From positions 1 to 14,407 of IMG/VR virus record IMGVR_UViG_2778261641_000006: DNA of 14,407 nt; one strand, written 5' to 3'. How positions within the stretch are numbered: position 1 is the first letter of the stretch; each line of letters starts with the position of its first letter. The DNA is from a virus. Its lineage: Duplodnaviria > Heunggongvirae > Uroviricota > Caudoviricetes. Shown piece by piece: positions 5,337 to 5,646 of the stretch. The notes beneath the pieces were generated by a model. It saw only the letters and a list, made by a program, of their open reading frames with translations, was not told the origin of the DNA and made no database searches. The position numbers and the translations under genes were made by a program.

Positions 5337-5412
5337 GGCCCTTTAGCTCAGTGGTGAGAGCGAGCGACTCATAATCGCCAGGTCGCTGGTTCAAATCCAG
5401 CAAGGGCCACCA
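5337..5412 (+). tRNA. tRNA with anticodon CAT (Ile2/lysidine-type or Met; resembles E. coli ileX and prophage ileZ)
   Basis: Cloverleaf folded by hand: acceptor GGCCCTT/AAGGGCC, D-arm GCTC..GAGC, anticodon loop CTCATAA, T-loop TTCAAAT, 3' ACCA. Confidence 0.8.
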
Positions 5413-5413
5413 G

Positions 5414-5490
5414 CCGCCACTAGCTCATCAGGAAAGAGCGTCAACCCTTTAAGTTGAGTGTGCGAGGTTCGAGTCCCCGGTGGCGGTCCA
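5414..5490 (+). tRNA. Non-canonical tRNA-like gene, UUU-type (Lys-like) anticodon in a loop reading CCTTTAA (C at position 33)
   Basis: Acceptor CCGCCAC/GTGGCGG, discriminator T, CCA encoded; 9-nt D-loop; anticodon stem TCAAC/GTTGA; T-loop TTCGAGT with an A-C mismatch in the T-stem. Could be functional, a pseudo-tRNA, or mis-folded by hand. Confidence 0.45.
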
Positions 5491-5492
5491 GT

Positions 5493-5568
5493 GCCGACTT
5501 AGCTCAGTAGGTAGAGCAACTGACTTGTAATCAGTAGGTCACCAGTTCGATTCCGGTAGTCGGCACCA
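5493..5568 (+). tRNA. tRNA-Thr (anticodon TGT)
   Basis: Acceptor GCCGACT/AGTCGGC, anticodon loop CTTGTAA, T-loop TTCGATT, 3' ACCA. One A-C mismatch in the T-stem. Confidence 0.7.
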
Positions 5569-5571
5569 TAT

Positions 5572-5646
5572 GCGGGCATCGTATAATGGCTATTACCTCA
5601 GCCTTCCAAGCTGATGATGCGGGTTCGATTCCCGCTGCCCGCTCCA
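5572..5646 (+). tRNA. tRNA-Gly (anticodon TCC), glyT-like
   Basis: Acceptor GCGGGCA/TGCCCGC, anticodon loop CTTCCAA, T-loop TTCGATT, 3' TCCA. Matches my recollection of E. coli glyT almost exactly. Confidence 0.85.

Follow-up and report, generated by a model that had tools for sequence, protein, structure and literature searches.

The DNA examined here (the window) is a 14,407-nucleotide (nt) stretch from a Caudoviricetes virus, positions 1 to 14,407 of the IMG/VR record IMGVR_UViG_2778261641_000006. It contains a cluster of tRNA genes at positions 5337–5646, whose second gene is the main subject of this analysis. ARAGORN calls exactly four tRNAs in the cluster, all on the plus strand, and they were scored with the Rfam tRNA covariance model RF00005, which has a gathering score of 29 bits. 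The first (5337–5412; 72.5 bits) has the anticodon CAU and is of the ileZ type: it is 100% identical to ileZ of Shiga toxin (Stx) phages and is annotated as tRNA-Ile by PGAP, so that of the two identities, Ile2 or Met, proposed in a first-pass annotation made from the letters of the DNA, Ile2 stands and Met falls away. The second (5414–5490; 44.4 bits) combines a lysine anticodon, UUU, and C at position 33 with a phage tRNA-Arg scaffold. The third, tRNA-Thr(UGU) (5493–5568; 73.8 bits), and the fourth, tRNA-Gly(UCC) (5572–5646; 64.9 bits), are exact copies (100% identity) of the host genes thrU and glyT of Escherichia coli K-12. All four genes end in an encoded CCA and are separated by spacers of 1, 2 and 3 nt; the tandem, CCA-bearing arrangement described in the first-pass annotation is thus confirmed by ARAGORN, Rfam and the sequence. 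The weakest match is that of the second gene, and since even its E value is 7.8e-07, none of the cluster tRNAs is a chance match.

The anticodon loop of the second gene, hereafter slot 2, is CCTTTAA (5446–5452, plus strand). The sequence and the covariance alignment assign it C32, C33 (5447), the anticodon U34–U36 (5448–5450), A37 and A38, exactly the anticodon, loop and C33 first read from it, and the loop is closed by the stem TCAAC/GTTGA. The cloverleaf is composed of 20 Watson-Crick pairs and one A·C pair in the T stem (51:63). U8, A14, G18, G19, A21, R37, G53, T54, T55, C56, A58 and C61 are intact, and the replacement of U33 by C is the sole deviation at a universal tRNA position. With A14, G18, G19 and A21 all present, the D-loop is not unusual, contrary to the initial description. 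The remaining oddities are at the acceptor end, where the first pair is C1:G72 and the discriminator base is U73. The fold and score check proposed at the outset, run with ARAGORN and Rfam, therefore identified a tRNA. Its low Rfam score is largely a scaffold trait, because the related argN genes (43.0–54.8 bits) and a sister Lys allele with U33 (53.2 bits) also score low. Single-sequence minimum free energy folding was uninformative, as it missed the cloverleaf even for the exact host thrU copy, and an assembly artefact is ruled out by the occurrence of the identical sequence in hundreds of independent genomes. C33 is shared with eukaryotic initiator tRNAs, which function naturally in the ribosomal P site; we know of no characterized bacterial or phage elongator tRNA with C33.

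The gene had initially been taken for an altered isoacceptor of the host tRNA-Lys, an origin that the comparison rules out. Only 47 of its 77 positions are identical to lysT, and the two genes have nothing but the anticodon loop in common (CTTTTAA in lysT, differing at position 33 only). The tRNA-Lys of phage T5 is identical at 44 of 78 positions, and judging from the alignments both levels are background similarity between tRNAs. The gene shows no homology to the lysT family and has C1:G72 and U73 instead of the G1:C72 and A73 of host-type tRNA-Lys. With argN of Stx phages, 62–65 of 77 positions are identical. By sequence and anatomy, 5414–5490 is a genuine phage tRNA gene and not a relic of host tRNA-Lys.

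Slot 2 was sampled in three ways, through its own T arm, the ileZ 3' end and the phage-specific Thr-Gly junction. Comparison of the recovered alleles establishes slot 2 of the cassette as a variable locus on one scaffold. The alleles comprise Arg(UCG), which is the classical argN; Arg(UCU); Lys(UUU) with C33; a rare Lys(UUU) with U33; odd or deleted forms; and gross pseudogenes. Among 127 junction-anchored loci, Arg(UCU) occupies about 33 and Lys(UUU) with C33 about 70, with 50 copies identical to that of the window. The Arg(UCU) alleles lie in Ile2-X-Thr-Gly cassettes and have the same anticodon stem, TCAAC/GTTGA, as the window gene. Two such prophage cassettes (IMG/VR loci L262 and L293) have the four-gene layout and the Thr-Gly junction of the window as well, and the spacers of L293 also match. 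Their slot-2 genes have the arginine loop CTTCTAA with U33, as opposed to CCTTTAA, and 9–11 further differences, and the L262 allele is also unlike that of the window in its fully Watson-Crick T stem and G73. Given the common anticodon stem and the matching spacers of L293, the window loop corresponds to CTTCTAA plus two transitions, U33C and C35U. The alignments thus identify the window gene as an allele of the lambdoid slot-2 scaffold, related to argN and argO, whose anticodon has shifted from Arg to Lys. Change of tRNA identity by point mutation of the anticodon, termed anticodon shift or tRNA gene recruitment, is a known process. Here, the change of C35 to U would have turned a phage tRNA-Arg with UCU into one with UUU, and U33 would then have changed to C in the window lineage.

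The pattern of substitutions indicates that this lineage was kept in the shape of a tRNA. Across 43 distinct slot-2 alleles, 96.0% of the alignment cells form pairs, compared with 28.8–53.4% when the 3' partners are slid. Covariation supports the four helices of the cloverleaf, with compensated double changes at four pairs; those at 7:66, 27:43 and 30:40 set the Lys clade apart from typical argN, and locus L261 carries a G:U intermediate at 30:40 while its anticodon is still UCG. Because the stem changes are compensated, the slot-2 lineage evolved as a folded tRNA, and past constraint on it is well supported. The nearest relative of the window allele is an allele with U33 and the loop CTTTTAT, which is known from L128, about 20 complete genomes and two metagenome contigs. 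Seven positions distinguish this U33 sister from the window allele, among them a compensated 4:69 pair and a T-stem pair that is repaired in the sister; its cassette is another one, with only two tRNAs, and follows a DNA methyltransferase gene. In view of these differences and of the other cassette, UUU in slot 2 persisted through real divergence: it is held by two lineages that have diverged and stands in two cassette contexts, the window type and the L128/L236/L254 type. No slot-2 scaffold with the host-like loop CTTTTAA turned up in the loci, genomes or metagenomes scanned, and a metagenome scan for UUU alleles without C33 returned two more copies of the U33/U38 sister and otherwise chance matches.

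Several unusual forms of slot 2 were also observed. In one sub-lineage of the U33 sister, the anticodon loop is 8 nt long, CTTTTTAT, and ARAGORN reads in it a four-base anticodon, 'tttt' (L258:351–428, L259:351–428 and L260:350–429, from E. coli PG20180057, M18 and A39; M1, M3 and CI5 fall in the same identity class). Such a loop would have the shape of a +1 frameshift-suppressor tRNA, but decay seems likelier because the adjacent ileZ in L258 is damaged. A 74-nt allele on the same scaffold (L274:1719–1792; five IMG/VR loci in all) has the loop CCAGGT, which starts with CC like that of the window gene and is reported by ARAGORN as '???'. About 15 IMG/VR loci of the L270 type (~7095–7171, minus strand) lack both ileZ and slot 2 and instead have, directly upstream of Thr-Gly, a long hairpin ending ...CCCGAGGAACCA without an ARAGORN tRNA call. 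Yersinia phage YeP2 has a distant relative of the scaffold between its Q and holin genes (L230:1501–1578), with the loop CATTGCC and the anticodon UUG; for this region, the YeP2 record lists a hypothetical protein encoded on the other strand. The relative has A33 and was considered as an independent case without U33, but was set aside because of its sub-threshold Rfam score and the pyrimidine (C37) at position 37.

The cassette is widespread in E. coli. Several complete E. coli genomes have prophage DNA that is 100% identical to positions 5200–5800 of the window, and at least 80% of this region is present in 463 of 5,426 genomes. E. coli 20Ec-P-124 and APEC IMT5155 are among the strains whose cassette is identical to that of the window. 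The window allele or a close variant of it was found in 798 of 5,426 complete E. coli genomes (~15%), and the band of 95–99% identity to the window allele holds 474 genomes. The C33 form thus occurs in roughly 750–800 complete genomes versus about 20 for the canonical U33 sister. Of four sequenced phages recorded with an E. coli host or strain, vB_EcoS-689R5, vB_EcoM-606R7 and PhiR47_1 have the same cassette and phi467 has only its Thr-Gly half. Annotation of the slot-2 gene is inconsistent across records (L233:401–477, L003:2716–2791 and the genome matches): in every row inspected, PGAP calls alleles of 99–100% identity tRNA-Lys and leaves those of 96–97% unannotated, and two GenBank phage records annotate Met, Thr and Gly and skip the slot-2 gene. 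Although the gene is already annotated in RefSeq, a full-text literature search for the slot-2 sequence found it in no paper, and its ancestry and C33 were not found described in the searchable literature.

The flanks of the cassette are scrambled (nucleotide diversity pi 0.26–0.31), and the four tRNAs are conserved (pi 0.006–0.017). Slot 2 has 9 segregating sites in 77 nt, all of them in the 55 nt that the search pattern left free to vary, versus 9–14 in 75–76 nt for the neighboring tRNAs. When one criterion was applied to the same 81 loci, damaged copies amounted to 7% for Ile, 20% for the Lys-like gene, 9% for Thr and 17% for Gly. The suspicion that slot 2 is a pseudogene, raised in the first-pass annotation, is met by a divided answer. 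The window allele folds, is called tRNA-Lys by PGAP and shows neither a disrupted structure nor a sub-threshold score, whereas derivatives of it have decayed: those with U8C or a D-stem deletion are pseudogenes by these measures. As to the other half of the cassette, only 3 nt separate the Thr and Gly genes in the phage, and the tyrU that lies between thrU and glyT in the host is missing together with its flanking spacers (compare L123:389–748). This arrangement suggests that the Thr-Gly pair was captured from the tRNA operon upstream of tufB. The Gly copy of about 10 related loci has C6:G66 replaced, with compensation, by U:A.

The cassette is bounded upstream by the Q late antiterminator gene (4447–5142; Pfam Phage_antiter_Q, E = 3.3e-95) and downstream by a phage-21-type holin gene (5939–6154; Pfam Phage_holin_2_1, E = 1.4e-35), both on the plus strand like the elements between them, in keeping with its original placement between a Q-like gene and the lysis cassette. 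A candidate pR'-like late promoter, TTGCAA-17-TATATT (5126–5154; 9/12 matches in a consensus scan), lies at the end of Q, a position assigned by analogy with the VT2-Sakai annotation. Downstream of it, a hairpin with 15-nt arms followed by a T-run (5200–5235), detected as an inverted repeat and terminator-like site, is a candidate tR'-like terminator of a short late leader. Sub-threshold matches (22.7–24.5 bits) to isrK/isrJ, Hfq-binding RNAs of Salmonella prophages, were observed just after Q at 5158–5231 and would fit a short late-leader transcript that stops at this terminator. The cassette has its own sigma-70-type promoter by consensus scan, TTGCAA-17-TATTAT followed by a GC-rich discriminator (5299–5327), at the position equivalent to a 'putative tRNA promoter' annotated in the VT2-Sakai record. 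In 82 loci, its −10 hexamer (5322–5327) is invariant and nearly all surrounding bases vary; within the −35 hexamer, 5299–5301 are nearly invariant and 5302–5304 are as variable as the surroundings. Just 3' of the cluster, a perfect hairpin with 11-bp arms (5653–5698, an inverted repeat) is possibly a processing or termination element. It is followed by a perfect 16-bp inverted repeat with a 41-nt spacer (5706–5778) and, upstream of the holin gene, by a terminator-like hairpin with a T-run (5854–5869; consensus scan).

By its location, from Q and the terminator to the lysis genes, and by its own promoter, this is a lambdoid late-region tRNA cassette, carried by a lambda-like prophage of E. coli. 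Its contents fit the ileZ-argN-argO type known from the Stx phages 933W and VT2-Sakai, with ileZ in slot 1 and a gene on the argN scaffold in slot 2. The window and Stx-phage cassettes agree in their site downstream of Q, pR' and tR', in having their own promoter and in the 100% identical ileZ. The slot-2 genes are homologous and have C1:G72 and U73 in common, but the A·C pair in the T stem is shared with F349-type argN only. Unlike the Stx-phage gene with its arginine-specifying UCG and U33, the window gene has UUU and C33; argO, in slot 3, is replaced by the thrU and glyT copies; and no stx genes follow. Elsewhere in the window, a hok/sok type I toxin-antitoxin module occupies 1594–1919, with a sok RNA (112.4 bits) at 1594–1769 and an open reading frame (ORF) at 1707–1919 that matches Pfam HOK_GEF (E = 1.5e-23). 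On the minus strand of 5337–5646, the reverse complements of three tRNAs match the Plastid-ycf2 family at 28.8–36.3 bits (gathering score 65.7), which we read as tRNA-shape artefacts. Copies of the small RNA family STnc100 lie near the cassettes of related prophages (L128:2265–3380, four copies; L002:4206–4417; L231:2443–2629), and the Rfam scan found none in the window.

The departure of slot 2 from host tRNA-Lys falls on positions recognized by defense nucleases. AriB, the nuclease of PARIS, cuts E. coli tRNA-Lys at U36-A-A-U-C|A41, the substitution U39A alone abolishes cleavage, and tRNA-Thr(UGU) is its second major target (PMC12409363). The window tRNA reads U36-A-A-G39-U40-U41 as opposed to the host U-A-A-U-C-A, and the AriB motif is absent from it. 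PrrC cuts 3' of residue 33, that is, directly after it (PMC2610378), so that C33 is the residue at the scissile bond. The 36-UAA-38 determinant for the t6A37 modification is present in the window tRNA, and bacterial TsaBD makes no base-specific contact to U33 (PMC13276492).

Among known phage tRNAs, the closest functional parallels are the tRNA-Lys(UUU) of T5, which neutralizes PARIS AriB, and the tRNA-Lys of SP15, which rescues from PrrC170 (PMC12409363, PMC11464382, PMC11555353). Rescue of infection by phage tRNA-Lys has been shown against both PARIS and PrrC170 (PMC11464382, PMC11555353), and when 245 coliphage tRNAs were screened for suppressors of AriB, only tRNA-Lys was enriched (PMC12445682). 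Like the T5 and SP15 genes, slot 2 of the window combines the UUU anticodon with departures from the host at nuclease determinants, the 3' strand of its anticodon stem differing from the host U39-C40-A41 needed by AriB. However, the T5 tRNA is a recognizable Lys-type molecule (G1:C72, A73, loop CUUUUAA) from a virulent phage, with resistance and rescue shown experimentally, whereas the window gene is derived from an arginine tRNA, has C33 and U73, belongs to a temperate phage and is known here from its sequence alone. Changes in phage tRNA loops have been proposed before to evade tRNases (van den Berg et al. 2023, PMC10264068), and the window loop likewise differs beside the cleavage site; that proposal is bioinformatic, concerns mainly mycobacteriophages and does not mention position 33, while the change in the window hits the near-universal U33. 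A further parallel is phage 21, a lambdoid phage whose tRNA-Thr(UGU) protects against P2 Old; the window has a phage-21-type holin, but its Thr gene is identical to thrU, from which the protective phage Thr tRNAs differ in the anticodon stem (PMC12445682). Resistance to P2 Old was also considered for slot 2, as the window allele lacks the paired CNG motifs of argN, but this argument was not counted as evidence: host tRNA-Lys lacks the full CNG motifs too, yet is slowly cut by P2 Old (PMC12445682).

The analysis directly demonstrates the structure of the slot-2 gene, its ancestry, its allelism and conservation, the conservation of the promoter and the absence of the AriB motif. From these we propose how the gene may act. 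It would be transcribed from the promoter of the cassette and in Q-antiterminated late transcripts, as the conserved signals suggest, and, judging by the anatomy of the cluster, excised from a tightly spaced four-tRNA precursor with its CCA already encoded. Under the identity rules of E. coli lysyl- and arginyl-tRNA synthetases (LysRS and ArgRS), it would be charged by LysRS via U34-U35-U36, arginine identity having been lost with C35, and would decode AAA and AAG, probably below the efficiency of host tRNA-Lys as its U-turn base is C. Being unlike the host tRNA in body and anticodon stem and changed at the cut-site residue, it could survive AriB and nucleases of the PrrC/RloC type and keep late phage translation going after destruction of the six host lysT-family copies. 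We consider it somewhat probable that the gene encodes a working Lys-decoding tRNA. The fuller account, of a working, probably inefficient tRNA-Lys that is insensitive to nucleases directed at tRNA-Lys and benefits the phage in this way, is the most likely one in our view, although we hold it tentatively and below an even chance; its anti-nuclease component is plausible but unproven.

A number of observations weigh against this account, and most of them fit instead a gene that is a crippled passenger, an Arg(UCU) tRNA disabled by C35 to U, by the later U33 to C or by both, and now in early decay between useful neighbors in a recently spread cassette. The loop is exactly two transitions away from an Arg(UCU) allele with the same stem, and the phage still uses AGA/AGG (43 of 3,664 codons), so that a lost Arg(UCU) tRNA would be useful. 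C33 is non-canonical and, together with the A·C pair of the T stem, costs the window allele about 9 bits relative to the U33 sister; host and T5 tRNA-Lys have A73 and G1:C72 where the window gene has U73 and C1:G72; and nearly all elongator tRNAs have U33, which is important for binding to the ribosome (PMC13276492). Slot 2 is prone to decay: of 227 copies, 36 receive no tRNA call; many alleles of argN have A58G or a mismatched acceptor; and among derivatives of the window type there are forms with U8C, with a deletion in the D stem or in the anticodon arm, or with a mismatch in the acceptor. PGAP passes over two common ones, C4T/U8C/C11T and a 1-nt D-stem deletion that occurs in PPompW-type phages, and neither has an Rfam match at E ≤ 0.01. 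Within the clade, 19 mutational events were counted, and those in stems are 6 pair-keeping versus 6 pair-breaking, with no excess of pair-keeping changes in what are underpowered tests; the invariance of positions 33–38 is not significant (P about 0.2). The clade is shallow in diversity and confined to Escherichia and Shigella; a species-level genome scan with a 3'-end pattern had matches in E. coli and Shigella flexneri only and hence gives the clade no deep phylogeny. As for nucleases, U33C was without effect on cleavage by gamma-toxin, a different anticodon nuclease (PMC2275089), so C33 need not protect against anything. Nor does the cassette consist of resistant variants throughout, since its Thr copy is identical to the nuclease-sensitive thrU. 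Against P2 Old, thrU protects little or not at all (PMC12445682). Nevertheless, we regard the passenger explanation, the main rival, as doubtful, if far from negligible: the commonest allele is otherwise pristine, and damage to slot 2 does not exceed that to the Gly copy in the same loci; UUU was kept through a divergence that includes the compensated 4:69 pair and through two cassette contexts; and the C33 form greatly outnumbers its canonical sister in complete genomes. No U33 revertant on the window-type backbone was found in about 840 copies, weak evidence given the few mutational events visible.

The cassette could also be a plain translational supplement with no link to defense, its four genes boosting the reading of the A-ending codons AUA, AAA, ACA and GGA. 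Per 1,000 codons, the window ORFs use ATA 7.6, ACA 10.6, GGA 11.5, AAA 44.5 and AGA 7.4 times, and the early genes more of ACA (19.0) and ATA (10.3); the values for E. coli K-12 are about 4, 7, 8, 34 and 2, respectively. The excess of ATA, ACA, GGA and AGA is in line with codon supply as the role of the Ile2, Thr and Gly genes, the latter two of which, as exact host copies, can act only through dosage. For slot 2, extra supply is a poor rationale, because AAA is already the preferred host lysine codon and is read by six lysT-family tRNA-Lys(UUU) genes, to which one probably less efficient copy would add little; nor would supply explain C33 and the unrelated scaffold, and we think it unlikely as the whole explanation. 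Far less probable still is a non-decoding role, as a decoy or competitive inhibitor of a nuclease directed at tRNA-Lys or as a modulator of slippage at A-rich sites. C33 should weaken A-site function while the overall tRNA shape is kept, a sister sub-lineage has the 8-nt loop read as 'tttt', and the AriB study raises viral tRNAs as possible competitive inhibitors (PMC12409363); but a tRNA without the AriB recognition motif would compete poorly for AriB, and the damaged ileZ in the 8-nt-loop cassettes suggests decay. A stronger version of the nuclease-insensitive tRNA-Lys that we favor would make C33 itself adaptive, a natural elongator tRNA without U33 in which the U-turn base was traded to block nucleases of the PrrC/RloC type on a scaffold already escaping AriB. 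We consider this improbable; in its wider form, slot 2 would be an arms-race locus whose scaffold repeatedly switches anticodon (UCG, UCU, UUU) and loop.

If the gene is a passenger, hundreds of genomes contain a gene that genome pipelines label tRNA-Lys although it probably has no function. If it works, common temperate E. coli phages, in ~15% of complete genomes, carry a spare tRNA-Lys made from a re-purposed arginine tRNA, a situation of interest as validated phage tRNA counter-defenses against tRNA-cutting immunity come mostly from virulent phages. A working gene would also offer a natural test of the dispensability of U33 in bacterial decoding. Anticodon switching on a fixed scaffold would then be a route to nuclease-proof tRNAs, and the protection that PARIS- and PrrC-type systems provide against lambdoid phages, relatives of Stx phages included, would be affected.

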